Below, one piece after another: positions 24,025 through 41,277 of a DNA stretch of 53,982 bases. The stretch's first letter is position 1. The number at the start of each line of letters is the position of its first letter. The stretch comes from an uncultured Methanosarcinales archaeon. GTDB lineage: Archaea; Nanobdellota; Nanobdellia; Woesearchaeales; CAZYIM01. Below the pieces are notes generated by a model. It had not been told where the DNA came from. It did no database searches and was given only the letters and a program-made list of their open reading frames with translations. Made by a program: the position numbers and the translations under genes. The DNA lies in contig CAZYIM010000004.1 of NCBI GenBank assembly GCA_964647565.1, positions 44,322-98,303 of the forward strand, read 5' to 3'.

Positions 24025-24924
24025 CTACTTTTTTCTTAATATATTTTTAGGGTCGCCTTTAAGAAAAGATTCTATATTTTGAATTGCAATTTCAGCTCCA
24101 TTTATGACTGCTTGCTTTGTTGAAAAAGCAATGTGGGGTGTGACTAATATTTTAGAATTACTTAATGCTTTTTGATAGAATTCGTTGGTTGTATCCCCAA
24201 ATTTTTCTGGATCACAGTCTATAGCCGCGCCGGCAACAATCCCTGCATTAATAGATTTAATTAGGCCATCTATGTCGTAAGTATAGGGTCTAGAAAAAGT
24301 GATGTAATAACAATCTTTTTTAAGACTCATAAAGAAATTTTCATCCAACAAATTTTTACTACTCGAATTGCAGTTAAGAGAATTAATGATCAGATCAGTA
24401 TTTTTAGAGCTGATGGTGAGGTCATCACCTCTTTCAAAAAATGTTATATCCATACCGAAGGCTTTGCATAGTATCCCTACTCGGCTACCTATATTTCCAT
24501 GTCCAATAATGAGGACTTTTTTGCCGACTAAACTTTGTTGAAGTTTTACGGGAAAATTTTCAGTAGCCCTGACCATGGGTGTAAATTTTCTAAATAAGGA
24601 TAAAGTCATGTACATCACCCATTCAACAATTGAATCCCTGTTCCCTCCTTGAGAATTTGCAACATTCACTCCATTTTTTTCTAAGTCTTTAGTGTTAAAA
24701 ACGCCAAGTTCTATATAGGGATAGGTTACGAAAACATTTTTTAATTTAGATAGGCTTTCTAGTAAATAATCTCCTTTACTATATATTACATCCGCATTTT
24801 TTGTTTTGTTTACAAAATCCTCAACAGATGCAGGACTTTCTAATATTGTGAGTTCTCCAATAGTTTCTAACCTTTTTTTGTGATCATCCTTAAGATCAAT
24901 TCCGAGTGTTATTATTTTCTTCAT
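24025..24924 (-). CDS. D-isomer-specific 2-hydroxyacid dehydrogenase family protein
   Basis: Rossmann IIGHGNIG, GAAIDCDPE, LVTPHIAF. Confidence 0.85.
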   Translation of the reverse strand: MKKIITLGIDLKDDHKKRLETIGELTILESPASVEDFVNKTKNADVIYSKGDYLLESLSKLKNVFVTYPYIELGVFNTKDLEKNGVNVANSQGGNRDSIVEWVMYMTLSLFRKFTPMVRATENFPVKLQQSLVGKKVLIIGHGNIGSRVGILCKAFGMDITFFERGDDLTISSKNTDLIINSLNCNSSSKNLLDENFFMSLKKDCYYITFSRPYTYDIDGLIKSINAGIVAGAAIDCDPEKFGDTTNEFYQKALSNSKILVTPHIAFSTKQAVINGAEIAIQNIESFLKGDPKNILRKK

Positions 24925-25051
24925 TTTGTTGTTCCTCGTAATCCTATTAATTAGTTACAATTTATAAATAAATCGATTTAGGAATGGAGTGGAAAAAACA
25001 CCTTAGTTATCTCATCAAATTTATTCTTTTTTAGTTTGTTTAACAAAAAAG

Positions 25052-25059
25052 TTTAAATA
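25052..25059 (+). promoter_or_regulatory. TATA box (TTTAAATA) with purine-rich BRE for the leuS leader
   Basis: AAAAAAG-TTTAAATA ending 23 nt before ATG 25082. Confidence 0.7.
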
Positions 25060-25081
25060 GCATCCCTATTTACTGTTTCTT

Positions 25082-25132
25082 ATGCAAACTGATTGCTATA
25101 ATTACCTTTTGGCTCTGCTTCTGTTAGTTTGA
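25082..25132 (+). CDS. Putative Leu-rich leader peptide (MQTDCYNYLLALLLLV) upstream of leuS
   Basis: 16-codon uORF with 6 Leu among the last 8 codons, starting at the predicted TSS; the Leu-codon strand is complementary to the leuS SD region. Confidence 0.75.
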   Translation: MQTDCYNYLLALLLLV

Positions 25133-25202
25133 AGACCCTTATATTTCAGGGTCTGATAGAAAACTTTTTTAATCAGCAGGCTAACCATCAAAGAGGATTA
25201 AG

Positions 25203-27893
25203 ATGAATGATAAAACACAGGTTGATTTTTCGAAGATAGCTGAGAAATGGCAGAAGAAATGGGCAGAGGCACGGATATTCAAGGTAAAAGAGGATCCCAA
25301 TAAAAAGAAATTCTACTGCCTTGAGATGTATCCTTATCCTTCGGCAACCCTGCACATGGGACATCTTAGGAACTATTCTATTGGAGATGCACTTGCAAGA
25401 TTTAAGCGTATGAATGGATTCAATGTCATCTATCCTATGGGCTATGATGCTTTTGGTTTGCCTGCAGAAAATGCTGCAATAAAACACAAGGTTGATCCTG
25501 AGAAATGGACATTATCTAACATTGAGAGTATAAAAGCCCAACAGCAAAAGATGGGTCTTTCCTATGACTGGTCAAGACAGATACAATCATGTGATGAAAA
25601 TTATTACAAATGGAATCAATGGATTTTTCTTAAGTTTCTTGAAAAAGGACTTGCCTACAAGAAACAATCTGCTGTGAACTGGTGTCCTGGGTGCCATACA
25701 GTTCTAGCAAATGAGCAGGTCATCGGCGGCCAATGTTGGAGATGCAAGGCTGATGTTGAGGAAAAGGCATTAGACCAATGGTTTTTCAAGATTACTCAAT
25801 ACGCAGAAGAATTGTTGCAGGATATTGATAAACTTGAGTATTGGCCTGAGAAAGTCAAAATCATGCAAAAGAACTGGATTGGCAAGAGTCATGGTGTTGA
25901 CTTGTTCTTTAAAGTCAAAGATAGTGATGTGGTCATACCTACTTTCACGACAAGGTGTGACACTATTTTCAGTGTGACTTTTGTAGTCATTGCGCCTGAG
26001 AATCCTTTGATAAAAGAGCTTGTGAAAGGTACCCAATATGAGGTGGAAGTAGAGAAACTCCTAAAAATTATTTCCAAACAGACAGTAATTGAGAGAACAA
26101 CAGAGTCTGGAAAGGATAAGTTAGGGTGTTTCCTTGGAAAATATGCTATCAATCCTGCCAATGGGGAAGAGATACCTATTTACATGGCTAATTTTGCATT
26201 GGCTGATTATGGTACAGGTTCAGTCATGGCAGATGCTCATGATCAAAGAGATTTTGAATTTGCAAAGAAATATGGCATACCTCTCAAATTTGTGATTTCT
26301 GATGATGGATCACCTATTAATCCTGATAAAGCATCAAGAGCGTTTCTTAATGATGGTATCTTGTATGATTCAGGAGAATTTTCAGGTATGCATAATCGTG
26401 ACGCACTTCCCGAGATGGCAGATTGGCTTGAGAAAACAGGTGGTGGCAAGAAGACCATAAACTATAAACTTAGGGATTGGTTGATATCCCGTCAGAGATA
26501 TTGGGGGACACCCATACCTGTAATCTACTGTGACGAATGTGGTGTTGTTCCTGTACCTTATGAAGATCTTCCTGTCAAACTTCCTAAGGATGCTAAATTT
26601 ACTGGCAAGGGAAATCCTATTCTTACATCAAAAAGTTTTATGGAATGCAAATGTCTTAAATGTGGCTCAGCGGCTAAACGAGAAAGCGATACAATGGACA
26701 CCTTTGTTGATAGCAGTTGGTATTTTTTGAGATATTGCAGTCCTAAATTTGACAAGCTGCCTTTTGATGGCTCTGCTGTTAAATATTGGATGGCTGTTGA
26801 TCAATATATAGGGGGTATAGAGCACGCAATTCTTCATTTGTTATATGCAAGATTCTTTACAAAGGCGCTTCGTGATCTTGGATTACATAAAGTGGACGAA
26901 CCGTTTGCCAGACTGCTTTGTCAGGGAATGGTCATTAAGGATGGCGCTAAGATGTCGAAATCATTAGGTAATGTTGTTGATCCTGCAGAGATAATGGATA
27001 AATACGGTGCAGATACTGCCCGTTTGTTCATACTGTTTGCTGCGCTTCCTGAAAAAGAACTTGATTGGTCTGATCAAGGCGTACAAGCTAGCTATAGATT
27101 CCTCAATAAGGTATATTCCCTTCTTGAAAAGGTCGAGTATAGATCTGAAGCCAGCAACAAGGACTCTTTTATTGAGAGTAAGATGCACAAGACCATAAGG
27201 ACCGTGTCTGATTACATTCAGGATTTCAAGTTCAGCCTTGCAATCGGTGCGATAATGGAGTTTGTGGGTGCCTTGCAGAACTACAGAAAAGAGCCCGTCC
27301 AAAAAAATATATATGCTGACGCAGTCAAGACAACACTGCTTTTACTAGGTCCTTTTGCACCTCATGTCTGCGAAGAGATGTGGGAAGCAACAGGTAATAA
27401 AAGTTACATCTCTGTTGCAGATTGGCCCAAATTCGATGCCAAAAAGATTGATGAGAAAGCAGAGGCTGCAGAAGAGATGGTTCATACACTTAAGTCTGAC
27501 ATCAATACAGTAAAGGAGCTTCTTAATTTTGACAGTTTAAAAAAGGTGCAGATCATTGTCAGCGCCTCCTGGAAGTTTGATTTCATGAGACTGTTCAAGG
27601 AAGAGCTTGCAAAGACAAGAGATGTTTCTGAGATTATCAAGGTTCTGATGCAGACAGATCTTAAGAGATACGGCCAAGAGATTTCAAAATTAGTGCCTAA
27701 ATTTGTGGCAGACCCAGGCAAGATATCTGACGTTGTCCTTGATCAGGACAGGGAGATCAAACAGATGGAAAGCCATATAGATTTCCTTAAGGAAGAGTTC
27801 TCAGCAGAGATTGAGGTCATAAAAGCAGAAGACTCCCAAGAGCAGAAAGCCAAAAGTGCCATGCCAGGCAAGCCAGCAATATTGGTGGAATGA
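25203..27893 (+). CDS. leuS: Leucine--tRNA ligase (bacterial-type core, archaeal-type C-terminal domain)
   Basis: [48 protein letters not shown]-terminal [11 protein letters not shown]. Confidence 0.97.
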
Positions 27894-31315: not shown

Positions 31316-31786
31316 ATGCCAGAAGAAGCTTTAAACTATATCAAGCGGAACCTTAAGAAAGGTCACTCTGAAGCTAGGATAAAGAAGGCCTTGACCAAGG
31401 CAGGGCACTCAGATAAGGATATTCAATATTATTTTAAGAAGCATCGTTCTACAAAGAAGCATAAACAAGCAACCTTTGTTGTTTTCTGTACCATCCTCGC
31501 CATTATAGGTATTGTTTTGATAGCGATAGGTGTAAGCCTGGTTGTAAAGAGGGAAACTCGACAGAGCACGCCAGAACTGCCAGTGATTCAGGAAGATCCT
31601 CAGGCTAATGATTTGATCGGTGGGCAGTTGCAAGTTACAAAAGCACAGTATAATGATTATTATAATACCTTAAACACAGCAGCCATACAAGAAGACATAT
31701 CTCTCTGTAATCGACTTACCATAGAATCTCTACATGAGAAATGCTTGGAGCTTTATCCTATAAAATTAGCAGAAATAAAAAGATGA
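31316..31786 (+). CDS. Single-TM protein, paralog of 28450-29151
   Basis: YIKRNLKKGHSEARIKKALTKAGH, TM, one Cys pair; ATGA overlap with the giant gene. Confidence 0.75.
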   Translation: MPEEALNYIKRNLKKGHSEARIKKALTKAGHSDKDIQYYFKKHRSTKKHKQATFVVFCTILAIIGIVLIAIGVSLVVKRETRQSTPELPVIQEDPQANDLIGGQLQVTKAQYNDYYNTLNTAAIQEDISLCNRLTIESLHEKCLELYPIKLAEIKR

Positions 31787-34700
31787 ATAAGAATACATTA
31801 TACAAAAGGTTAACAACATTATTCGTAGTTAGCTTGCTTTTAATTGTATTGTCTTATTCTGCAACTGGTGAGTATTATCCTACTATGAACACTGATGATC
31901 CTGATTGCACTGATAATTATAATGATGAGGATTGGTTGTGGGCTTGCCAGACGTTCCGATCTGGATGTAATGCTGTTTATTGTACTGATGGTAGCTGTGA
32001 TTGTAACATGGGTAATAATTGTTGTTGCACCCAGGAGATATGTACTGATAAACTGGACAATGATTGTGATGGTGGCACAGACTACTGCGATAGTGGGTGC
32101 GGTTGTCCTTTTGGAAGCGAGTTTGGATGCACAGCTTGTGCTCGATGTACTGTTGACTCGGCAACAGTAGTAGTAGGTGAGCCCGTAACCTTCACTCTTT
32201 TCATAGGTTTTGGAACTGCACCCCCTAGTTCGAGAATACAATTTGGTGATGGCGCATCTTCTGTTGGCAGTTATGGGTCTGGTTCGACTGTTGTCCATTC
32301 ATATAATAACGTTGGAACATGGGATCCCTATTTTGAGCCTGTGGTCACTTTTCAAGAAACAGGCAGCTCAATAAGCTGTCCTACAATCACAGTCGAATCA
32401 CCTGATACAACACCTCCATCTACTCCGACTGCTGTGAGTCCTTCTGGATTTACCACAGACCATACTCCTGCCTTTGATTGGACTTCTTCAACTGACGCGA
32501 GTGGAATTGATTACTATCAGGTGAGGTGGCATTCTGGATATGGTTGTTCAAATCAGATTAGTTCTGTAAATACAGCTAGCACTACCACTAGCTATACAAT
32601 AAGTACATCAATGTCAGATGGTAGCTATTCTTTTGAAGCCAGAGCAAGAGATAATGGAGGTCTTTGGAGTAGCTTTAGCAGTTGCATGGACTTTACTATA
32701 ACTACTGTTCATGACTGCAACTGGTGTATGCAGTGGAACAATGATCCTTCGAACTGTCCGTCTGGTGCATCTGAGGATTGTTGGTATTATTATTCAGACA
32801 ATTACTGTCTTAAGAAAACAATGGTCTGGGACGGCGGGAGTTGTGTCAATGCACAATCCTGTACTGATGATGAAACTCCAAATAACTTATACAGCAGGGG
32901 TAGTGCAACTGGAAATCTTGAATATAGCTTATTATCTGGGACTTATCAGGACTCTTGTTCATCTAATGGCATTGGAAGCGAACCAGACATTATACAGGCT
33001 GATTGCACCTACAGATCAGGATCAGATATAACCTTTGTAACTTATACCAACAATGATAACTGTTTTAGTTCTATAAGTTGGGATGCAAATTATGTTTGGG
33101 CGCAAGGCGCTGTATGCAGAAGTGGTGCTTGTGCAAGTTGTTATCCATCTGATGGCAGCAAGACATGCTCTAATGATGGCAATTGTAATCTTATCTCAGA
33201 CAATGTGTGGTTTAGCTATACAGTGGATGCCATGCGACCTATGAGATGCGAACCAGAAATGCAGTGTACCAATGGCCGTTGTTGTGAACTTGGCGAGGTA
33301 TGGTCTGGTTCGTCTTGTGGAACTCCGCCTCCTCCGCCTCCTCCGCCTCCCGCTGCACCGACTGTTGATTCTTTGTATTGTCCTGGGTGTTTGCCTGGAC
33401 AGTGCGAGGTTAGATTCACTGACAATTCCAACAATGAAGATGGCTTTAGATTGTATGTATCCTCTGGTCAGAACTGGGGAGATAGTCCTAATTGGGGATC
33501 TGCAGTTTTAAGAACAATCCATTTCTCTATTGGGGGAACTGGATCAACAAGTACTATGACTGATACAAGTAATAATCAACTATATCCTACAAGCTATTGC
33601 TACTGGATAGCTGCTTACAATGCTGGCGGACAGTCAGGTGTTGTACCTGCTGGCTGTGACTTCTTTTTTAATAATGTTGCCAACCTTCGCAGCACCGGCC
33701 AATCGACTAATTCATTAAATTGGGCATGGGATGCAGTAAGCGGGGCAACAGATTATCGAGTATTAAATGATTGTTATCTTGGTTTAGGTCTTCACTCAGG
33801 AACAACATGGACCATGAACCAAAATTGGGAGTGGAACGGCTTTGGTTGGTGCGGGAATAATTTATTAAACTTGGCAGATGGAACATCTTATCAAATATCC
33901 TTGATTCCTGAACGATGGGAGAGTGGCAGCCTGGTCAATAGTGGTTGCATGAGCGGATTTGCAGGGGGTACCACTGACACAGTAATTCCTGTTCCTGTAA
34001 CATCACTTACCTGTCCTACTAGTTCAGATTGGAGTGACGCAGGCCATAATACAGCTACCTTCTTAGCTACCAACAGCCCAGATGCATTTGAATGCAGTAT
34101 CGACAGTAATCCCTGGGTAGCATGTTCAAGTCCCCAGGCATATCCCTCCCTTAATAGTCCTAGTAATCCATCAATGCATTCTTTGCGTGTCCGGGCACAT
34201 AATAGCCAAGGTTGGGGTAGTGCTGCCCAATGCAGCTGGTGGATTGGTATCAGTCCGAGTGTAAATTCAATGATTGTTGAAGGTACACCAAGATCAACTA
34301 TAGTTGATGGCTCAAATGTTATCCAGAGCTATGTACCTAATAGTGATGGGACAGTTGATATCTCCTGGACTGTTTCAGATAATTCTGGAGGCCAAAGTGC
34401 CAATTCAGGAGTCCAATATGTCAGAGTTCTTAGATATAATAACCAAGGGGGTTTTCCTGGATCGCCTGATTTGGCTACAGAAACTGAAGTAACTGTTGCT
34501 ACTGCCCCTGCCAGCACTTACACCTGGTCAAGTTCTTTTACAGATGGTTCTTTGGCTTCAGGCATCTACTGGTATTCTATTGAATTAAGAGACAATGCCG
34601 ATATTGATACAACTCCATCTGTAACCTTGGCACCTATACCTGTACAAGTGACTCTTCCACTACCTCCTGTGGCTGATTTCTCATATTGTAAGCTTAGCCA

Positions 34701-37700
34701 GACTGCGACAACAGTGGACATAGAGTTTTCTGATCTTTCGACGAATACACCTACTAGCTGGGATTGGGATTTTGGTGATGGTTCGTCGCATTCTTCTTTG
34801 CAGAATCCTGTCCACACATATAACACAGGATCAGGAGGGCAGCCTGCAAACTGGTGGAATGCTTTGTGGCTATCCAGGATTAATGTCACTTTTGATATGT
34901 CTGGAATTTCTGAGAATCTAAATAATGTGCCTGTATTGGTTGAGCTTGATTCAACAAGGGTGGAGTACTCAGAGATTCTTCCTAATGGTGATGATATACG
35001 TGTTATTGATGATGACGGCACCGTACTAGATTATGAGATTGAAAAGTTCGATTCATCTGGCACAACTGTTTTATGGGTGAGGATTCCTTCAATTACAGCT
35101 TCTGAATCAGAACATGTTATTTGGATCTATTATAACAATCCTGTTGCTGGGGCGGGAGAGGACGCTCAAAATGTGTGGACAAACAACTATGTCAATGTCT
35201 GGCATTTAGGGGGTACGGGTAATGATCAGGTTTGGGAATCAGTCAGCGGTAGTTACAGAGAACCCATAGATTCAACTTGGAACTGGAACTCAATAGATGG
35301 AAAGATTGGCAATGCTCTTGAGAGGCAGTTTGTCCAGAATAGTCCTTTTAGATGCATAACTTCTGATCAACAGTCACTAGACGACTATACAATACAGTTT
35401 TGGTACAAAGGTATACCTGATGGAAATCCTGGATTTCAATACAATGGTCTGATTGTCTGGGCTACTAATTGGCAAAGCTTAGTGATTGGATCTTGGCTAC
35501 CCAATGCAAACACGCCGCATTATTTGGATTTTGTGTCTTTTAATTTTATTGGAGGATATATTCAACGTGAATTCCTTACTCCTTCAAATATTATTGGAGA
35601 CCATACATGGGATATGATGACTGTTGTAATGGATTATCAAGGTGCTCCGCCCTATGAAGATGAGACTACGGTAAGAGTGCTCAGGAACGGGCAGGCTCTC
35701 ATTAATCAAAACTCAAATTTTTATTATGATAATGCAGGTTCTGATACTGGTTTTCTTAAGTTAGGAACTTGGGGGCAGTTAGATCAGATGCATTCTTTGA
35801 TAGATGAATTCAGGATATCTAGTGTTCAAAGAAGTGATAATTGGGCTGCATTCCAATATTGTGTTATGGAGGGCGGTTGTGTCAGTTATAGTCAGAATCC
35901 TGCAAAAGCACTAACCTTAATCGCGACTAATGTTGCTGGTTCAGATAGCGAAGTAAAGCCATTTGATCCAAGTTCGGTTCAATACTGTCCTGGAGCCCAA
36001 CCTCCTGTGGCTAATTTTTCATATTGTAAGCTTAATGAGACAGGTACGACTGTTGGTATTGAATTCACTGATCTTTCAACCAGTAATCCGACTTCTTGGG
36101 ATTGGGATTTTGGGGATGGCACACCTCATTCTTCCTTGCAGAATCCAGGACATACTTTTTCTGTTAGTAGCAGTAGTGCTTTTTTTGGTGATGGTTCTGA
36201 TGGTAGTGTTGTCATAAATGGGCCTGTTAATATCAATACTCAGACGATTACAGTTAGTAGATCTGAACCTGATGGTGTTGTTTCTGTTGTTTCTGATGTT
36301 GGTGTTAATTCTGTTACTGTTGCTGATGCTAGCGGGTTTTATACTGACGATATGGTTTTGCTTATGAATTTACAGGGTACTTCTGGGGATAGTGTTAATG
36401 TTGGTAATTATGAGTTTATTCCTGTGGCTTCTGTTGTTGGTAATGTAATTACTTTTACTGCAGATATTGCTCAGACTTATGGTAGTCCTGCTTCTCAGAA
36501 TATTATTCTACAAAGAGTACCGCAATATGATGATGTGACTGTTACTGGTAGTGGTGTTTTGACTGCTAATGGTTTTGATGGTTCTACTGGTGGTGTTGTT
36601 GCTTTCTTTGCTAGTGGCACTTTAAATGTGCAATCTGGTGGCAGGATTGATGTTAGTGCTAGAGGTTTCAGAGGTGGTAGTTCGTCTGGGCCTGAAGGTC
36701 ATACTGGCAGGACCACTACTGGTGGTGGTGCTGGCGGAAGCGGTAGTGCAGGTGAGCCTAGCGGTGCTGGTTATGGAGGTGATGGCATAGCAACAGGTGG
36801 TGGTGCTGGTGGCGCAGGCGGTATTTCTGGAAATGATTGTCCTCCGAACGGTCGTGTTAACCATGCTGGCGGAAATGGAGACTCTGGCGGTGGAGATGGT
36901 GGAGATGCTGGATGTCAGAATGATCCTGGTATTCCTCCAGCTACTCCTATTTATTGGAATGGCGGATCTGGTGTAAGTGGAAGTTCAACTTCCCCTGGAA
37001 GGGGAGGTGGAGGTGGCGGAGGTGGCCCTTCAGCAGGTGGTGCTGGCGGTGGTGCAGCCCCTTTTAATTCTGAAACCAATGATGCAACTGCTACTCTCTC
37101 AAGAATAATGCTAGGCGGTGGCTCCGCAGGTGGTGCTGGCGGTGGAGGCGCAGGAGGATGCGGCCGAAGTGGTACTAATGGAGGTGCAGGCTCAGGAGGA
37201 AGTGCAGTGGGTACCCCTGGAAGCGCAGGTAGCAATTCTCCTCAATGTAATGGTCCTTTTGCAACTGCGGGGACTGTTGGAGGTAGTGGAAATGCTGGCG
37301 GTGGAATGGTCATGATTATTGCGGATACTGTTAATATCGTAGGTACTGTAAACTCTAATGGTGGACAGGGTGGTGCTGGAGGTGACGGTGGTGACGGCGG
37401 CAGTGGTGGTGGCGGAGGCATTAACAATGGCGCTGGTGCTGGAGGTGGCGGCGGTGCTGATGGTGCAGCTGGCGGAAGTATTTATATTTATGGTGATACT
37501 GTTGCTTTAGGTTCAAATGATGTTATAGCTACGGGTGGTGCTGGTGGAAGTGGTGGAACTGGCGGTAGCGATGGCAATGGTTGGAATGCTGACAGCGGTA
37601 GCGGGGGGAATGGTGGTTCTGGTTCATCAGGATCTGTTGGTAAGATTGCTGTCAAGGGCACAACTTCTGTTACTGGTAACACTAATCCCGCTTATAATGT

Positions 37701-40700
37701 TGCTGCAGATCCTCATATAACAGATACTAGTGGAGGCTCAACTTTTAATGTTGTTTTGGATGCTACTAATATTGACGGTTTTGATAGCGAAACCAAGATC
37801 ATTAATCCATCCGCAGTTCAATACTGCCCTGGAGCAGCTCCTCCTATTGCCAACTATTCTTACTGCAAACTGAGTGAAACTTCCTCTACAGTGACTGTCA
37901 AGTTCAATGATACATCCACCAACAATCCTACTTCGTGGGACTGGGACTTCGGTGATGAATCTTCACATGGAACTGTGTCTGATCTTACTCATAAGTACGG
38001 TAGGTTTATGTTTGAATCCTGGCCAACCAGATTAAGGATAACTTATAACACTGCTTCTGCTAACGCATTGCAGGACGTTCCTGTCTTAGTTGAGTTGACA
38101 CCTGGACTTATCGATTATAATGATTTTAAATCTGGTGGCGCTGATATAAGATTCACAGATTCTGATGGTAATACAGAGCTTGATTATGAGATTGAACTTT
38201 GGAATCCTGGCGGTACATCTATCATCTGGGTTAAGATACCTTCAATAGCTGCTTCAGAGACAAGCCATTCAATATGGATGTATTACGGCAACAGCAATGC
38301 CAATCCTGGCGAGAATCCATCAGGTGTCTGGGATGATAATTTTGTTGGAGTCTATCATCTGGCAACTCCCGGAGCAATTGCTTATGACTCGAAGAATGGA
38401 TACAATGCCGATGTCCGTGCAGACAGGCCGAACAGATATCCTGGTATGTTCGGAACAGGTTATAGCTATCAGCTTAATTTAGATAGCTACGCAGCTAGTA
38501 GGGCTCCAAGAGGTGTTGGGACTATGGAGGCATGGATTAATAGGAAATGGGCCAATGATGATCCCAATGACTATGGAATTGCAGCTGTCTATTGGGCTAA
38601 TGATATGTGGAGGATGATGTGGAGAGGAAGCACAGCTAACTGTGGCAGGCATTTCTGGACAGAGGCCCGTTCAGCTGATTATGGAGTAGCTTGGTGTGAT
38701 GGCTGCACTGATCATGTCAATGTCTATCCAGAACAAGGAGTCTGGGGTTATCTTGTAGGAACTTGGGACAGCTCATATGTCAGGACATATGTTGATGGCC
38801 GTAGATGCGGATCTGTGGGAGGGATAGCTCCATGGACCCAAGCCCCTCTCCGATGGAGAATGGGCTGGCACAGCACTTCATCGGGTACTTTTGATGAGTT
38901 GAGAGTATCCAATATTGCTCGATCTCAAGACTGGATAGACTTCCAGCACTGTGTCATGACTAGTAGTTGTACAAGTTATGGATCTCCTGCAACAGTAACA
39001 GTGGATAATCAGTTTGATACTTCCTTGACTGCAACGAATCAAGGTGGCTTTGATACAGAACTAAAAACAATTGATTTGAATACAATACAAGATTGTCAGT
39101 TTGTTCAGCCTCCTGTTGCTAACTATACCTATTGCAAATTAAATGAGACGCCCATTAACATGACGATTAATTTTAAGGATATTTCAACCCACACATCCAC
39201 TGACTGGGATTGGGATTTTGGGGATGGAACAACAGATAACGGAACTCAGCATCCTGAGCATACATATGCAGATACAGGCAGTTATGACTCTGGTAAGATT
39301 GATGCTGCAATGGGAATGGATCCCAGCTTTGACGAGTGTTATATTATATTTAATCCCGCTTCTTGCACAGGCTTTAACTATACTGCTGTTTGCGAAGAGC
39401 CTTCATGTACCTATCCTCCTCTTCCCTGGAAAACATTATTTGCAGTTAGAACAGATGCTATTCCTACACACTGGCCTCTTCAAGGCTATAATACAACTAA
39501 TATATTTGGATACGGAGTTTTAATTGCTAAATTTTTCTGGTTTGAGCGCTATGTACCGCAGGATATTTCTCCTGGAGACTATTATGTTGAAATAAATGCC
39601 TTTGGAGAGATTGGTGAGGATGATGAGATCGTAACCATAAGCATAAATGCTGATCAGAACCAGACATCTGGAGATATATGGGATGCTCCTGACTGGGGTC
39701 ATTACTCCCAGAAATGCGTCTACCCGAACAAGTTCACCATAGTACCCGGTGATAAGATAAGGTTCTCTGCTAGGGAGAATAATGGCAGCATTCACTATGA
39801 CTGGTATAGGATAAAAGCCCGCATTGAGCCAGGAGATATAAGCTGTGCAACTGGAAATCCTCTTGTGCCAGGGCCGCTCAATGTAGAATATAATGTTACC
39901 TTGGCAGCCACTAATGCTGCGGGAGCAGATAGCGAAAGGAAGGAGATCAATCTGACACAGGTATCCTGGTGTACTGCACCTCCACAGACAGTTGCTGATT
40001 TCAGCTATTGTATGTTGGGAGAGACTGTTGATACTGTAACCATACAGTTTACTGATACTTCCACACAGAATCCCACTGGATGGTCATGGAACTTTGGTGA
40101 CAGCCACACCAGCATTTTGCAAAATCCTGTGAATGTGTTCTTAAGAGGCACGTATAATGTTAATCTCTCTGTGACTGCAGCATATTCAACTGACTCTGTA
40201 CTCAGGAATATAGCTGTGAATGATGCTCCGCTATGTTCAGATCCATCAAATCTGCCACCCAACAAAAAAATCCTGATAATTACAGACGGCACAACTAATA
40301 CTTTGATTGATGGGTCTCAAGATCAAGATCTGGCTGTCCAGGAAGCCCTGACTCATGCATGCAGCAGCAATGCCAATTCAGCCAAATCATTAGGTGTGCC
40401 AATATTTATAATAGGAATAGGTCCTGATCTGGCTAACCAGACACATCTAGAGCGTATCGCGAAATGTACAAATGGCGAATACTTCAGGGTGGACAGCAGT
40501 ATTACGATCCAACAAGTCAGGGATAAGATTTTCAACTGGCTCTTTGCTGAAGAATTCCCTACAACATCAATAGATGTGTCTGCGGACTCTGTAGGTGAAT
40601 GGGATATGAGCAGAATGCAGGTTGCAGATGTGAGATGGTCTGATGATATGTGTGCTGAAAATCTTACTTATTGCATAGGTAATGATCCTGGTTTTACATA

Positions 40701-41277
40701 TGTTGGCTGTAGTGACTTTAGAACAGGCCTAAATGCTTATATCAATGCTCAGTGCAATAATGTTGTAGGCTGCACTGTTGAGGTACCGATCAATATCAGC
40801 TCACCGACAAGGGGCAATCTAACCCTTTATGAATTCTCGATTGAACTGCCTTGTTGTCAGGAGAATGCCACTTGCCAAAGATTTGATGATACCCTAGAAG
40901 GGATTTATGGGACCTGCTGCCATGATGATACATATTATCAAGCAAATAACTATAGGATGTACTGTAGTATGGGCATAGATGATACAACCATATTAGGAAC
41001 CGAAGGCCACTGTTGTCGCTTAGGATTTTATTGGAACTCTACACTTAACAGGTGTATTAATGCTACAACCTGTTTTGACCTTCCATGTCCGCATCAATAC
41101 AACTCAATAGAGTATTGGAAAACTGGCAACTGTTTCATCGGCAACAGTTCAAGCTCACACATCAGACCTTTCGAAGGTTCTTGTTGTCCAAATTTCAGGT
41201 ATGGATATCCCTATATGGCCACTCCCATTGCAGATTTCAGATACTACTATGATCCTGTTCAGATTTATCTGAGCTAA
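31783..41277 (+). CDS. Giant (~3,160 aa) secreted multidomain surface protein: Cys-rich, FN3/Ig, 5 PKD-like, 2x DUF2341+LamG-like, Gly-rich, C-terminal part of a vWA domain
   Basis: Signal peptide from MNKNTL; WDWDFGDG repeats; DIR..D.DG..LDYEIE..W(V)(R/K)IP DUF2341 motifs; DEFRISS/DELRVSN LamG ends; ILIITDG...IFIIGIG vWA half. Confidence 0.9.
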   Translation: MNKNTLYKRLTTLFVVSLLLIVLSYSATGEYYPTMNTDDPDCTDNYNDEDWLWACQTFRSGCNAVYCTDGSCDCNMGNNCCCTQEICTDKLDNDCDGGTDYCDSGCGCPFGSEFGCTACARCTVDSATVVVGEPVTFTLFIGFGTAPPSSRIQFGDGASSVGSYGSGSTVVHSYNNVGTWDPYFEPVVTFQETGSSISCPTITVESPDTTPPSTPTAVSPSGFTTDHTPAFDWTSSTDASGIDYYQVRWHSGYGCSNQISSVNTASTTTSYTISTSMSDGSYSFEARARDNGGLWSSFSSCMDFTITTVHDCNWCMQWNNDPSNCPSGASEDCWYYYSDNYCLKKTMVWDGGSCVNAQSCTDDETPNNLYSRGSATGNLEYSLLSGTYQDSCSSNGIGSEPDIIQADCTYRSGSDITFVTYTNNDNCFSSISWDANYVWAQGAVCRSGACASCYPSDGSKTCSNDGNCNLISDNVWFSYTVDAMRPMRCEPEMQCTNGRCCELGEVWSGSSCGTPPPPPPPPPAAPTVDSLYCPGCLPGQCEVRFTDNSNNEDGFRLYVSSGQNWGDSPNWGSAVLRTIHFSIGGTGSTSTMTDTSNNQLYPTSYCYWIAAYNAGGQSGVVPAGCDFFFNNVANLRSTGQSTNSLNWAWDAVSGATDYRVLNDCYLGLGLHSGTTWTMNQNWEWNGFGWCGNNLLNLADGTSYQISLIPERWESGSLVNSGCMSGFAGGTTDTVIPVPVTSLTCPTSSDWSDAGHNTATFLATNSPDAFECSIDSNPWVACSSPQAYPSLNSPSNPSMHSLRVRAHNSQGWGSAAQCSWWIGISPSVNSMIVEGTPRSTIVDGSNVIQSYVPNSDGTVDISWTVSDNSGGQSANSGVQYVRVLRYNNQGGFPGSPDLATETEVTVATAPASTYTWSSSFTDGSLASGIYWYSIELRDNADIDTTPSVTLAPIPVQVTLPLPPVADFSYCKLSQTATTVDIEFSDLSTNTPTSWDWDFGDGSSHSSLQNPVHTYNTGSGGQPANWWNALWLSRINVTFDMSGISENLNNVPVLVELDSTRVEYSEILPNGDDIRVIDDDGTVLDYEIEKFDSSGTTVLWVRIPSITASESEHVIWIYYNNPVAGAGEDAQNVWTNNYVNVWHLGGTGNDQVWESVSGSYREPIDSTWNWNSIDGKIGNALERQFVQNSPFRCITSDQQSLDDYTIQFWYKGIPDGNPGFQYNGLIVWATNWQSLVIGSWLPNANTPHYLDFVSFNFIGGYIQREFLTPSNIIGDHTWDMMTVVMDYQGAPPYEDETTVRVLRNGQALINQNSNFYYDNAGSDTGFLKLGTWGQLDQMHSLIDEFRISSVQRSDNWAAFQYCVMEGGCVSYSQNPAKALTLIATNVAGSDSEVKPFDPSSVQYCPGAQPPVANFSYCKLNETGTTVGIEFTDLSTSNPTSWDWDFGDGTPHSSLQNPGHTFSVSSSSAFFGDGSDGSVVINGPVNINTQTITVSRSEPDGVVSVVSDVGVNSVTVADASGFYTDDMVLLMNLQGTSGDSVNVGNYEFIPVASVVGNVITFTADIAQTYGSPASQNIILQRVPQYDDVTVTGSGVLTANGFDGSTGGVVAFFASGTLNVQSGGRIDVSARGFRGGSSSGPEGHTGRTTTGGGAGGSGSAGEPSGAGYGGDGIATGGGAGGAGGISGNDCPPNGRVNHAGGNGDSGGGDGGDAGCQNDPGIPPATPIYWNGGSGVSGSSTSPGRGGGGGGGGPSAGGAGGGAAPFNSETNDATATLSRIMLGGGSAGGAGGGGAGGCGRSGTNGGAGSGGSAVGTPGSAGSNSPQCNGPFATAGTVGGSGNAGGGMVMIIADTVNIVGTVNSNGGQGGAGGDGGDGGSGGGGGINNGAGAGGGGGADGAAGGSIYIYGDTVALGSNDVIATGGAGGSGGTGGSDGNGWNADSGSGGNGGSGSSGSVGKIAVKGTTSVTGNTNPAYNVAADPHITDTSGGSTFNVVLDATNIDGFDSETKIINPSAVQYCPGAAPPIANYSYCKLSETSSTVTVKFNDTSTNNPTSWDWDFGDESSHGTVSDLTHKYGRFMFESWPTRLRITYNTASANALQDVPVLVELTPGLIDYNDFKSGGADIRFTDSDGNTELDYEIELWNPGGTSIIWVKIPSIAASETSHSIWMYYGNSNANPGENPSGVWDDNFVGVYHLATPGAIAYDSKNGYNADVRADRPNRYPGMFGTGYSYQLNLDSYAASRAPRGVGTMEAWINRKWANDDPNDYGIAAVYWANDMWRMMWRGSTANCGRHFWTEARSADYGVAWCDGCTDHVNVYPEQGVWGYLVGTWDSSYVRTYVDGRRCGSVGGIAPWTQAPLRWRMGWHSTSSGTFDELRVSNIARSQDWIDFQHCVMTSSCTSYGSPATVTVDNQFDTSLTATNQGGFDTELKTIDLNTIQDCQFVQPPVANYTYCKLNETPINMTINFKDISTHTSTDWDWDFGDGTTDNGTQHPEHTYADTGSYDSGKIDAAMGMDPSFDECYIIFNPASCTGFNYTAVCEEPSCTYPPLPWKTLFAVRTDAIPTHWPLQGYNTTNIFGYGVLIAKFFWFERYVPQDISPGDYYVEINAFGEIGEDDEIVTISINADQNQTSGDIWDAPDWGHYSQKCVYPNKFTIVPGDKIRFSARENNGSIHYDWYRIKARIEPGDISCATGNPLVPGPLNVEYNVTLAATNAAGADSERKEINLTQVSWCTAPPQTVADFSYCMLGETVDTVTIQFTDTSTQNPTGWSWNFGDSHTSILQNPVNVFLRGTYNVNLSVTAAYSTDSVLRNIAVNDAPLCSDPSNLPPNKKILIITDGTTNTLIDGSQDQDLAVQEALTHACSSNANSAKSLGVPIFIIGIGPDLANQTHLERIAKCTNGEYFRVDSSITIQQVRDKIFNWLFAEEFPTTSIDVSADSVGEWDMSRMQVADVRWSDDMCAENLTYCIGNDPGFTYVGCSDFRTGLNAYINAQCNNVVGCTVEVPINISSPTRGNLTLYEFSIELPCCQENATCQRFDDTLEGIYGTCCHDDTYYQANNYRMYCSMGIDDTTILGTEGHCCRLGFYWNSTLNRCINATTCFDLPCPHQYNSIEYWKTGNCFIGNSSSSHIRPFEGSCCPNFRYGYPYMATPIADFRYYYDPVQIYLS

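Follow-up and report, generated by a model that had tools for sequence, protein, structure and literature searches.

Leader-peptide control of amino-acid and aminoacyl-tRNA synthetase genes is a textbook bacterial mechanism in which the ribosome reads nascent or freshly made mRNA. The Streptomyces leuS and trpS genes are predicted to carry leader-peptide attenuators, and pheST (E. coli pheM-pheST) is named among the genes controlled in this manner, in the available excerpt of PMC1262725. In these classical attenuators, as in the archaeal leuS leader described here, a leader open reading frame (ORF) with cognate codons lies directly before the synthetase gene and is followed by hairpins, and the proposed logic is the same, with the ribosome reading tRNA charging. 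However, attenuators of the classical type depend on antiterminator and terminator hairpins that exclude each other and on a terminator stem with a U-tract right behind it, whereas the predicted helices of the leuS leader are nested, no competing hairpins were found among them and the T6 tract lies 10 nt after the hairpin rather than directly behind the stem.

The mycobacterial leaderless poly-cysteine small ORFs (sORFs; Ms5788A type) were shown by mutation and proteomics, according to the available excerpt of Canestrari et al. (10.1101/834739). They share with the leuS leader a codon run for one residue, and their position at the mRNA 5' end and the regulated genes on the same transcript are predicted for leuS as well. 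In both cases several loci carry the same device, which is called a 'ribulon' in mycobacteria. The mycobacterial system is bacterial, senses cysteine and controls cysteine metabolism, whereas the system considered here has archaeal BRE/TATA promoters and leucine, isoleucine and valine synthetase genes as targets and is known from sequence. In the ermC and cat leaders, which are covered in the same excerpt (10.1101/834739), a ribosome arrested in the leader ORF remodels the pairing and frees the Shine–Dalgarno (SD) site, as would be the case in the mechanism proposed for leuS. The arrest at ermC and cat involves an antibiotic and the nascent peptide, whereas the ribosome in the leuS leader would stall for lack of charged tRNA at the codon run.

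T-box riboswitches act on the same genes and respond to the same tRNA-charging signal as proposed for the leuS leader, but they do so by direct binding of uncharged tRNA, independently of translation. The GGGTGGTACCGCG motif, which we take to be the T-box motif, is observed upstream of the bacterial leuS loci L015, L020, L021, L024, L033, L036 and L085. Leader-peptide control of archaeal amino-acid or synthetase genes was not found in full-text literature searches, and the available excerpts of archaeal ribosome-profiling papers mention upstream ORFs (uORFs) in general terms only. The view of the original prediction that such a leader has little precedent at an archaeal synthetase gene thus holds within these searches. 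In bacteria, leader-peptide attenuators of leuS (Streptomyces), trpS and pheST are published.

Organization of the leader upstream of leuS

The window, a DNA stretch of 53,982 nt to which all positions refer, belongs to an archaeon of the DPANN kind, in agreement with the original prediction. This organism is known solely from metagenome assemblies. A search for sequencing runs with this stretch listed 12, all of them DNA from marine or seawater metagenomes and none RNA. Its genome is labeled G000; L-numbers denote individual loci, and G041–G045 are genomes of relatives. The leuS gene (25203–27893, plus strand) encodes a bacterial-type leucine–tRNA ligase (LeuRS) of 896 residues, which matches the NCBIfam model TIGR00396 (leuS_bact) with 974.9 bits against a cut-off of 548.4. 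A search of the genome with PF00133 returned IleRS, ValRS, LeuRS and MetRS once each, and the sole LeuRS found in the assembly is the product of this leuS gene.

All elements of the leader lie on the plus strand. The promoter (25044–25059) is composed of an A-rich BRE-like stretch (CAAAAAAG) and a TATA box (TTTAAATA; 25052–25059) that starts exactly 30 nt before the ATG of the uORF. The uORF (25082–25132) consists of 16 codons and a TGA stop codon (25130–25132) and encodes the peptide MQTDCYNYLLALLLLV. Codons 9–15 (25106–25126; CTT TTG GCT CTG CTT CTG TTA) form the Leu run, which contains six Leu residues and one Ala residue (LLALLLL). Four different Leu codons are used, as originally listed, but the GCT included in that list encodes Ala. 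Directly after the uORF stop codon, a 7-bp hairpin (P2; 25133–25154) is formed by AGACCCT (25133–25139), an 8-nt loop and AGGGTCT (25148–25154). It is followed by the block TTTTTTAATCAGCAGGCTAAC (25165–25186), which contains the T6 tract (25165–25170) and the CAGGCTAAC segment (25177–25185). The SD site AGAGGA (25192–25197), with GAGG at 25193–25196, is located 6 nt before the leuS ATG. The positions originally assigned to the TATA box, uORF, hairpin, T6 tract, SD site and leuS all match the sequence. The T6 tract is a possible oligo-T terminator or, alternatively, a possible weak proximal TATA element at −38 of leuS.

The promoter geometry points to a leaderless uORF. Across the genome, the starts of TTTAWATA boxes relative to gene ATGs peak at −30 (76 genes), with 39 genes at −31 and 22 at −32, and positions −7 to −3 upstream of these boxes are A-rich. 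The distance of 30 nt is the modal TATA-to-ATG distance of the leaderless genes of G000 and is matched exactly by the uORF, a canonical arrangement that fits its earlier designation as leaderless. From this geometry, the transcription start site is expected at or next to A25082, which would make the uORF AUG 5'-terminal and the leader 121 nt long up to the leuS ATG. SD-like motifs (GAGG, GGAG and GGTG) peak at −15 to −6 of genes genome-wide.

The Leu run is rare in the genome. Among the 1496 genes with an upstream spacer of at least 60 nt, no ATG-started upstream sORF other than the leuS uORF has six Leu residues in eight codons, and at least five Leu residues in eight codons are found upstream of only 10 genes. 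A window of six Leu residues in seven codons occurs in 13 of the 2948 intergenic segment-strands. By a looser rule, Leu-tailed sORFs are present in 15 of 2430 upstream regions, compared with 6 for Ile and 1 for Val.

Other RNA classes were rejected for this region. An Rfam E-value scan of positions 24800–25400 gave nine weak matches, none of which was a T-box or reached its gathering score. The best of these matches, to the C/D-box small RNA TtnuCD4 on the minus strand (25144–25212), scored 28.2 bits where the gathering score is 60, and the distance from UGAUGG to CUGA on that strand, as read by eye, is just 8 nt and not the ∼12 nt that separates the boxes of C/D guides. A tRNA scan of the window returned none.

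Predicted folding of the leader

The leader was originally proposed to sequester the leuS SD through two pairings of the Leu-codon strand. The first of these (P1), between GTTAGTTTG (25123–25131) and CAGGCTAAC, was reproduced with nine base pairs, of which two are G–U. The second, between CCTTTTGG (25105–25112) and TCAAAGAGG (25188–25196), retains just six contiguous pairs (CCTTTT/AAGAGG, one G–U), and the minimum-energy fold instead pairs CUCU (25113–25116) with AGAG of the leuS SD. The minimum free energy of the whole leader is −28.1 versus −24.4 ± 3.6 for shuffled sequences (z = −1.03); an equally good fold was obtained for 28 of 200 shuffles. Locally, the P2 hairpin surpasses its shuffles (z = −2.95, p = 0.017), as does the duplex that the Leu run can form with the spacer in this leader (p = 0.022). 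When the Leu run was masked, the predicted unpaired probability of the SD core changed from 0.53 to 0.71 and that of the leuS region −16 to +3 from 0.60 to 0.62, although masking any segment tends to raise such values.

Ten leaders, including those of other loci introduced below, were compared. The run–spacer duplex is significant in three of them (G000 leuS, p = 0.022; L241, p = 0.034; L286, p = 0.048) and not significant in the other seven, including G000 ileS (p = 0.13) and L221 (p = 0.66). Moreover, the SD of the G000 ileS leader participates in no predicted pairing. SD sequestration is therefore not common to these leaders. An SD-hiding duplex is a feature of the mycobacterial type, but the corresponding predicted fold of the leuS leader is weak, as judged from the whole-leader z-score, the small change in SD access upon masking and the pairing in three of ten leaders. 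The L221 leader displays the same nested P1/P2 shape as that of G000, generated from a very different, GC-rich sequence. A hairpin located at the uORF stop codon or within 6 nt after it is significant in seven of the ten leaders (combined p = 5e-7). Among four other leaders viewed for T-runs, G000 ileS, L221 and L312 have none, and the L286 hairpin is followed by T14. Because most leaders lack T-runs, a hairpin combined with a T6 tract was rejected as a transcription terminator shared by these leaders.

Cognate leaders at other synthetase genes and in relatives

The ileS gene of the same genome (TIGR00392, 804.5 bits) is preceded by an Ile-rich uORF of 21 codons (MATVIAKELKTIASIISIIIM) with a TATA box at −30 of the uORF. 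Downstream of the uORF come a hairpin, a spacer of 68 nt and then an SD site. By the rule applied to Leu, Ile-rich uORFs are found at 7 of 1496 genes, and the joint chance of a Leu uORF at leuS and an Ile uORF at ileS in G000 is ∼3e-5. The upstream sequences of the other synthetase genes, read by eye, indicate that most are leaderless. A TATA-like box lies ∼30 nt before the gene's own start at 11 others (Met, Trp, Tyr, Pro, Gly, PheA, Ser, Lys, Asn, Ala and Arg, the last of which counts if its start is read as GTG). The ValRS gene has a TATA box (+31) and an ATG frame (MNIATQTVIVS) that runs into a 10-N scaffold gap (C26:10752–10761), which was not bridged by the contigs of four DNA runs across L092:2350–3250. 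The SerRS gene was rejected as a member because serS possesses a TATA box of its own at −31 and because the leaderless frame located 111 nt upstream of it (MRIVEE) is not rich in Ser. The gene for AspRS (bacterial type, contig C5) has an sORF (MSIKNRYDTAKFSLVGNTNNNGNDDCC) 237 nt upstream with other elements in between, a suggestive arrangement that was left out of the counts. Contig C15 carries a leaderless sORF rich in Val (MSTTNLISIVLILVVVVLV) in front of a gene that has no connection with valine.

The original prediction named an absence of Leu-rich uORFs from relatives as one refuting outcome, but such uORFs were found there. At the order level, Leu-tailed uORFs precede leuS at 6 of 124 loci (L241, MITLSDHRILLLLS; L247, MINTSWILLLL; L275; L286, MKQTSLSLLLLLLLLLAL; L312, MLCNKDSGLSLLLL; L221, MTTTTQLVLALLLR) and are absent from the remaining 118, and Ile-tailed uORFs occur at none. 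Ile-tailed uORFs precede ileS at 4 of 70 order-level loci, and a Leu-tailed one is present at a single ileS locus. The L119 and L153 ileS leaders have 21 codons, like that of G000, and end in SIII. One of 29 valS loci (L347) carries a Val-run leader (MICVVVVVA) with a TATA box at −31. The scan of other synthetase genes that had been suggested thus returned Ile at ileS, in G000 and relatives, and Val at the valS gene of a relative. The residue follows the gene (Leu at leuS, Ile at ileS and Val at valS), both in G000 for leuS and ileS and in relatives. A Fisher test of residue against gene for Leu and Ile tails at leuS and ileS gave p = 0.015 without G000 and p = 0.005 with G000. Binomial p values were 1.3e-4 for leuS, 3e-5 for ileS and 0.012 for valS, with background rates taken from one genome (G000) and with kin loci that are not independent. 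The frequencies of Leu-tailed uORFs alone, 6 of 124 leuS loci versus 1 of 70 ileS loci, do not differ significantly (p = 0.43).

The leader has a patchy distribution. None of the 76 usable metagenome leuS loci, many of which are bacterial, has a Leu-rich or Leu-tailed uORF. In the closest LeuRS relatives examined (at most 79% identical in the first 200 residues), a TATA box is located ∼30 nt before leuS itself, and in G041–G045, which possess ileS leaders, leuS and valS have no cognate uORF. The leader DNA (24925–25260) produced only chance-level matches of 21–51 nt in 40 genomes of the same order and is therefore untraceable by sequence at this distance. The leaders of G000 and L312 can nevertheless be aligned end to end, including their Leu runs, and the homologous L312 hairpin still pairs despite three two-sided changes, as read by eye from the alignment. 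The L241 Leu run also resembles that of G000. Outside the tail, the leader peptides are not conserved. At L286 and L312, the uORF comes after the stop codon of the upstream gene without a TATA box, and leuS has no SD site.

Proposed sensing of Leu-tRNA charging

The leuS leader is probably a cognate-codon leader peptide that serves as a ribosome-read sensor of Leu-tRNA charging, as judged from sequence comparison. We infer the transcription start, the translation of the uORF, the stalling and the output step with its sign as follows. The strong promoter at 25052 would start the mRNA at or next to A25082, and the resulting AUG-first mRNA would be translated as a leaderless mini-gene. Since six of the last eight codons specify Leu, in four different forms, how fast the ribosome moves there would report the charging of all tRNA-Leu species and thus indicate how well LeuRS activity keeps up with demand. 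Both the run and the stop codon adjoin the hairpin, and the run may also pair with the segment just 5' of the leuS SD. A lingering ribosome would hold these structures open, and they would re-form once the ribosome finishes and leaves. The most likely output would be increased initiation at the leuS SD upon stalling, a translational attenuation of the type seen with the leaderless poly-Cys sORFs of mycobacteria. A change in termination at the T6 tract would be a less likely output. To our knowledge, it is not established that archaeal RNA polymerase terminates in a hairpin-dependent manner, and archaeal termination is not known to need hairpins.

We also lean toward the broader view that leuS, ileS and valS of this order are each gated by a mini-gene of their own residue that adjoins a stop-codon hairpin, constituting a small 'ribulon'. 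Its mini-genes would be leaderless in G000 and several relatives and would operate with a BRE/TATA promoter and without the bacterial hairpin-plus-U terminator. Leu-tailed leuS leaders span at least six families, and the device would therefore have arisen or spread repeatedly.

The block behind the hairpin permits an alternative, albeit unlikely, explanation with two transcription units. The strong 25052 promoter would generate only a short sORF transcript, terminated at the T6 tract, oligo-T tracts being a known archaeal termination signal, and leuS would be transcribed nearly leaderless from a weak proximal promoter (TTTTTTAA at −38), with no effect of the uORF in cis. The TTTTTTAATCAGCAGGCTAAC block aligns with TATATTAATTAGCAGACTAAC of L312, a TATA-like element located 32 nt before an SD-less leuS ATG, and is retained 34 nt before leuS at L268, which has no uORF. 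The T6 tract, originally regarded as a terminator, may thus be part of a proximal promoter, and such a promoter would make leuS of G000 independent of the uORF. TTTTTTAA is also enriched at −35 to −31 of G000 genes (15 versus ∼2–3 per bin). However, position −38 is outside the range that this genome uses, as TTTAWATA is found there at only three genes compared with the 76 at −30. A transcription start near −8 would remove a good SD site (AGAGGA, −11 to −6) in a genome that clearly makes use of SD motifs. Two units would also leave the Leu, Ile and Val tails at leuS, ileS and L347 valS unexplained, and at G000 ileS neither a T-run nor a TATA-like element is observed between the uORF and the gene.

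It is quite improbable that the uORF is translated without sensing leucine, either constitutively, with ribosome loading at a leaderless 5' end that opens the structured leader or stabilizes the mRNA, or as a small hydrophobic peptide with its own job. Such a role would suit the hydrophobic, membrane-like character of the peptides, the valine-unrelated gene behind the Val-rich sORF on contig C15 and the fold calculations, which give no clear switch. A generic hydrophobic peptide, however, would mix Leu, Ile, Val and Phe, whereas Leu tails are found at six leuS loci and G000 versus one ileS locus and Ile tails at no leuS locus versus four ileS loci and G000. The lack of conservation outside the tail likewise argues against this explanation.

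A chance origin, in which a T/C-rich spacer yields a short Leu-coding ATG frame beside a promoter and the pairings are ordinary for a 120-nt A/T-rich RNA, is very improbable and disfavoured: the fold of the whole leader does not surpass shuffles, Leu has six codons that T-rich sequence favours, Leu tails occur elsewhere in G000 under the loose rule and most relatives lack the leader, but the joint probability at leuS and ileS is low, both uORFs lie at +30 of a consensus TATA box, cognate leaders recur in relatives and the hairpin is kept by compensatory changes between the alignable G000 and L312 leaders.

As a probable sensor of Leu-tRNA charging, the leuS leader of G000 resembles the amino-acid gauges of bacteria that are based on the ribosome. 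The 120-nt leader is a concrete, mutable element that can be tested in a model archaeon. It also suggests an annotation rule, namely a cognate-tailed leaderless sORF with a hairpin next to its stop codon, both ahead of a synthetase gene that has an SD site, and raises the question of how the output works where transcription termination is hairpin-independent. The ribulon, if true, would represent an archaeal form of ribosome-mediated attenuation. If the proposed sensing is true, archaea whose genomes are very small and encode few regulators would use the ribosome itself to sense tRNA charging.

Leader elements upstream of leuS

The leuS gene (25203–27893, plus strand) encodes a bacterial-type LeuRS (TIGR00396, 974.9 bits), the only LeuRS found in the assembly of the source genome (G000). 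LeuRS residues 8–772 match the bacterial equivalog. The last ∼330 residues match archaeal LeuRS models (NF008957 at 526–896 and TIGR00395 at 571–896), which suggests that the C-terminal domain is chimeric or of the archaeal type. A 278-nt intergenic spacer (24925–25202; 29.5% G+C) separates leuS from a divergent minus-strand gene (24025–24924) whose similarity to 2-hydroxyacid dehydrogenases is weak and does not reach the cut-off. A plus-strand ORF of 3178 aa (31741–41277) is located a few kb 3' of leuS. The 2.68-Mb assembly comprises 86 contigs, is 86.9% complete and contains archaeal SSU and LSU rRNA, and the archaeal cluster S13-S4-S11-RpoD-L18e-L13-S9-RpoN is found in the window just upstream. 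The closest IleRS matches are records named Woesearchaeota, Pacearchaeota or Nanoarchaeia, and the DPANN host assumed in the original prediction therefore holds.

All of the leader elements listed in the original prediction are found on the plus strand of the spacer, at the coordinates given there. The TATA-like box TTTAAATA (25052–25059), preceded by CAAAAAAG, is followed by the uORF MQTDCYNYLLALLLLV (ATG 25082 to TGA 25132), the hairpin AGACCCT/AGGGTCT (25133–25154), the T6 tract (25165–25170) and the Shine-Dalgarno (SD) site GAGG of leuS (25193–25196). The complementary strands GTTAGTTTG (25123–25131) and CAGGCTAAC (25177–25185) form 9 bp, including two G-U pairs. The second proposed pairing exists but is shorter than claimed (6 bp), and in the predicted minimum-energy fold CUCU (25113–25116) pairs with AGAG of the leuS SD instead. 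The fold of the whole leader is not unusual relative to shuffled sequences (z −1.03; 28 of 200 shuffles as good). The hairpin directly after the uORF stop codon beats shuffles (z −2.95), and the duplex between the Leu-codon run (25106–25126) and the spacer is also unusual (p 0.022). By the Rfam scan, the leuS leader is not a T-box. On the minus strand, Rfam gives a weak hit to a C/D-box snoRNA model (25144–25212) that stays below threshold (28.2 bits vs 60) and overlaps the leuS start region, and a C/D sRNA was rejected at this position, where the box spacing is unlike that of archaeal C/D sRNAs.

The promoter geometry was analyzed using rough gene models built from long ORFs (n = 2494, covering 88% of the genome). 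The TTTAWATA motif piles up at −30 relative to the gene ATG (76 genes at −30, 39 at −31, 22 at −32, 18 at −29 and 3 at −38), with A-rich BRE positions directly 5' of the box, and GAGG, GGAG and GGTG cluster at −15 to −6. Thus, both leaderless and SD-led starts are used in this genome. A consensus BRE/TATA lies exactly 30 nt 5' of the uORF ATG, and a good SD precedes leuS itself. This layout would be expected if the leuS mRNA begins at A25082 with a 121-nt leader and AUG as its first codon.

Upstream regions of ileS and other synthetase genes

A blind scan of the source genome for sORFs that start 28–33 nt after a TATA-like box and precede a same-strand gene returned 54 sORFs, with the leuS uORF and the uORF MATVIAKELKTIASIISIIIM both near the top. 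The latter is located 134 nt 5' of a 1049-aa gene identified by NCBIfam as IleRS (804.5 bits). In this ileS leader (contig C1:118579–118745; L091:580–746), the TATA box TTTATAAA is located 30 nt 5' of the leaderless 21-codon uORF, which is followed by a 9-bp hairpin, a 68-nt spacer and the SD GGTG; the Ile-codon run pairs with AUGAUGGUAGAA further downstream.

Such uORFs are rare in the source genome. Six Leu in seven codons are observed in 13 of 2948 intergenic segment-strands, and an ATG-sORF with at least five Leu in eight codons precedes 10 of the 1496 genes with an upstream spacer of at least 60 nt. Among these 1496 genes, leuS is the only one whose upstream ATG-sORF has six Leu in eight codons, and only seven have an Ile-rich uORF when the rule is applied to Ile. 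The joint chance of a Leu uORF at leuS and an Ile uORF at ileS is ∼3e-5.

The synthetase genes were located by nine Pfam searches and named by NCBIfam, and their upstream regions were read by eye. A TATA-like box is observed ∼30 nt before the gene's own start in 11 of them (Met, Trp, Tyr, Pro, Gly, Phe-alpha, Ser, Lys, Asn, Ala and Arg, the last only if read from a GTG), and the PheT and Cys synthetase genes closely follow another gene. The long-leader layout is found at leuS and ileS. Upstream of valS (C26:10589–10830, minus strand, L092), the TATA box TTTAAATA is followed at +31 by an ATG, and the frame MNIATQTVIVS... continues into a 10-N scaffold gap (C26:10752–10761) that contigs of four DNA runs do not bridge. 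This frame, read up to the gap, is a possible Val leader.

Several other features were observed in the source genome. A bacterial-type aspS (591 aa; C5, minus strand, L093) has a TATA-positioned sORF, MSIKNRYDTAKFSLVGNTNNNGNDDCC, 237 nt upstream, with six Asn and three Asp; the intervening stretch, which has a G+C-rich segment and a T-run as well as a TATA-like box, could be a small RNA gene. A seemingly strongly structured stretch ∼330 nt upstream of thrS (C48, L099) stands out from the A/T-rich genome by its high G+C and may represent a structured RNA gene. The class II LysRS (C25:17442–20300, L103; residues 5–490) carries a C-terminal extension of ∼460 aa, part of which matches the AlaRS catalytic-domain family at its end (positions 441–551 of PF01411). 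Contig C58 (10.2 kb, L101) contains hisS and a second, bacterial-type aspS (468 aa) head to tail, with upstream stretches richer in G+C by eye than the rest of the genome, and may be a contaminant in the bin (contamination estimate 1.85%). The sORF MKHLASKRKFSKLSLLDSILICFCFYC (C7:6770–6966), with a Phe/Tyr/Cys-rich tail, precedes a gene with a DAHP-synthase-like N-terminus (by eye). The sORF MSTTNLISIVLILVVVVLV (C15:5102–5161), with leaderless geometry and six Val, is separated by 83 nt from a downstream 119-aa gene and by ∼500 nt from the gene for 16S rRNA; instead of a sensor, it may encode a small membrane peptide.

Recurrence and shared architecture in relatives

The relatives compared with the source genome are related at the order level only. 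A leuS search of 401 genomes of the order gave a match in 264, and 124 usable leuS loci were read (27 from the 29 best matches returned as loci outside the source genome and 97 from another 100 upstream regions). The fixed rule for a uORF was an ATG start, 8–45 codons, at least four of the last six residues alike and an end no closer than 20 nt to the gene, within 250 nt. Leu-rich uORFs, predicted for relatives, do occur upstream of leuS in 6 of the 124 loci (L241, L247, L275, L286, L312 and L221), but at ∼5% penetrance most loci have none. Of the other tails, K, S and F are each found once and I is absent. Upstream of ileS, 4 of 70 genome-collection loci carry an Ile tail (L119, L151, L153 and L160) and one carries a Leu tail; the uORFs of L119 and L153 have 21 codons and end in ...SIII, as in the source genome. 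A Val-run uORF (MICVVVVVA; TATA at −31, SD before valS) is found at 1 of 29 valS loci.

The tail residue is associated with the gene (Fisher p 0.015 without the source genome and 0.005 with it), and Leu tails alone do not differ significantly between leuS (6/124) and ileS (1/70; p 0.43). Against the background in the source genome's upstream regions (L 15, I 6 and V 1 of 2430), the binomial p values for cognate tails are 1.3e-4 (leuS), 3e-5 (ileS) and 0.012 (valS), with a one-genome background and non-independent kin. The leuS and valS leaders were not found in the relatives that carry ileS leaders. A TATA-like box lies ∼30 nt before leuS itself in 21 of the 27 closest LeuRS relatives (those usable among the 29 best matches) and in 42 of 76 usable metagenome leuS loci, many of them bacterial and some with a T-box-like motif; none of these 76 has a Leu-rich uORF. 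Two ValRS types are observed within the order: over the first 300 residues of the source-genome ValRS, identity is 62–76% in 17 of 120 relatives and ∼34–49% in the others (loci examined, L324–L352).

Ten leaders (six leuS and four ileS) were compared for hairpins. In each, a stem-loop starts at the stop codon or at most 6 nt after it, with the stop in the loop in L286, as also in the valS leader L347. This stem-loop beats shuffles (p < 0.05) in seven of the ten (combined p 5e-7). The stop-to-leuS spacers are 70 nt (source genome), 72 (L221), 75 (L286), 69 (L312), 52 (L241) and 30 (L247). By eye, the alignment of the L312 leader with that of the source genome extends from the Leu run as far as the start codon, and three two-sided changes preserve the hairpin pairing. 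The L221 leader (60% G+C) adopts the same nested shape from unrelated sequence, with the run and stop pairing with the pre-SD segment around the hairpin. A cognate run, a stop codon and an immediate hairpin are common to all of the leaders.

Possible output steps and relation to known systems

The stop-adjacent hairpin would have to be held open by any ribosome that dwells on the run or the stop codon. This would then translate into either more or less synthetase. The main rival reading is that a second, weak proximal promoter may precede leuS in the source genome, because the best-conserved block of the leader, TTTTTTAATCAGCAGGCTAAC, which includes the T6 tract, aligns in L312 and the uORF-less L268 with a TATA-like block 32–34 nt before an SD-less leuS. 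The SD-sequestering fold of the original prediction is possible but weak: the SD core of leuS is predicted to be 0.53 unpaired, or 0.71 with the run masked, and the −16 to +3 region changes only from 0.60 to 0.62 in predicted unpaired fraction. The SD of ileS in the source genome is not paired at all in the predicted fold, and of the 10 leaders only 3 have a significant duplex between run and spacer. Termination at a T-run, the other proposed output, is not common to the leaders (T6 in the source-genome leuS, T14 in L286, none in the source-genome ileS, L221 or L312). Membership in the classical attenuator family was rejected because no competing terminator/antiterminator pair was found in the leuS leader.

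SD sequestration is the model shown for the leaderless poly-Cys sORFs of mycobacteria (10.1101/834739), and these leaderless sensory sORFs are the closest to the leuS leader in design. By the genes they control, the nearest counterparts are the predicted Streptomyces attenuators of leuS and trpS and the E. coli pheM-pheST system (PMC1262725). No description of cognate-codon leader peptides in archaea was found in the open-access main texts searched. Two archaeal Ribo-seq reports go no further than calling 5'-UTR sORFs 'reminiscent' of leader peptides in bacteria (PMC10117724, PMC11456600).

The proposal that leuS of this archaeon is preceded by a leader peptide that senses Leu gains support from the paralogous ileS case and the recurrence in relatives; this support does not extend to the particular fold or to the output step. 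Judged from sequence, the leuS leader is fairly likely to be a working sensor of Leu-tRNA charging. It represents a new variant, archaeal and mostly leaderless, of the cognate-codon leader peptide already known from bacteria.
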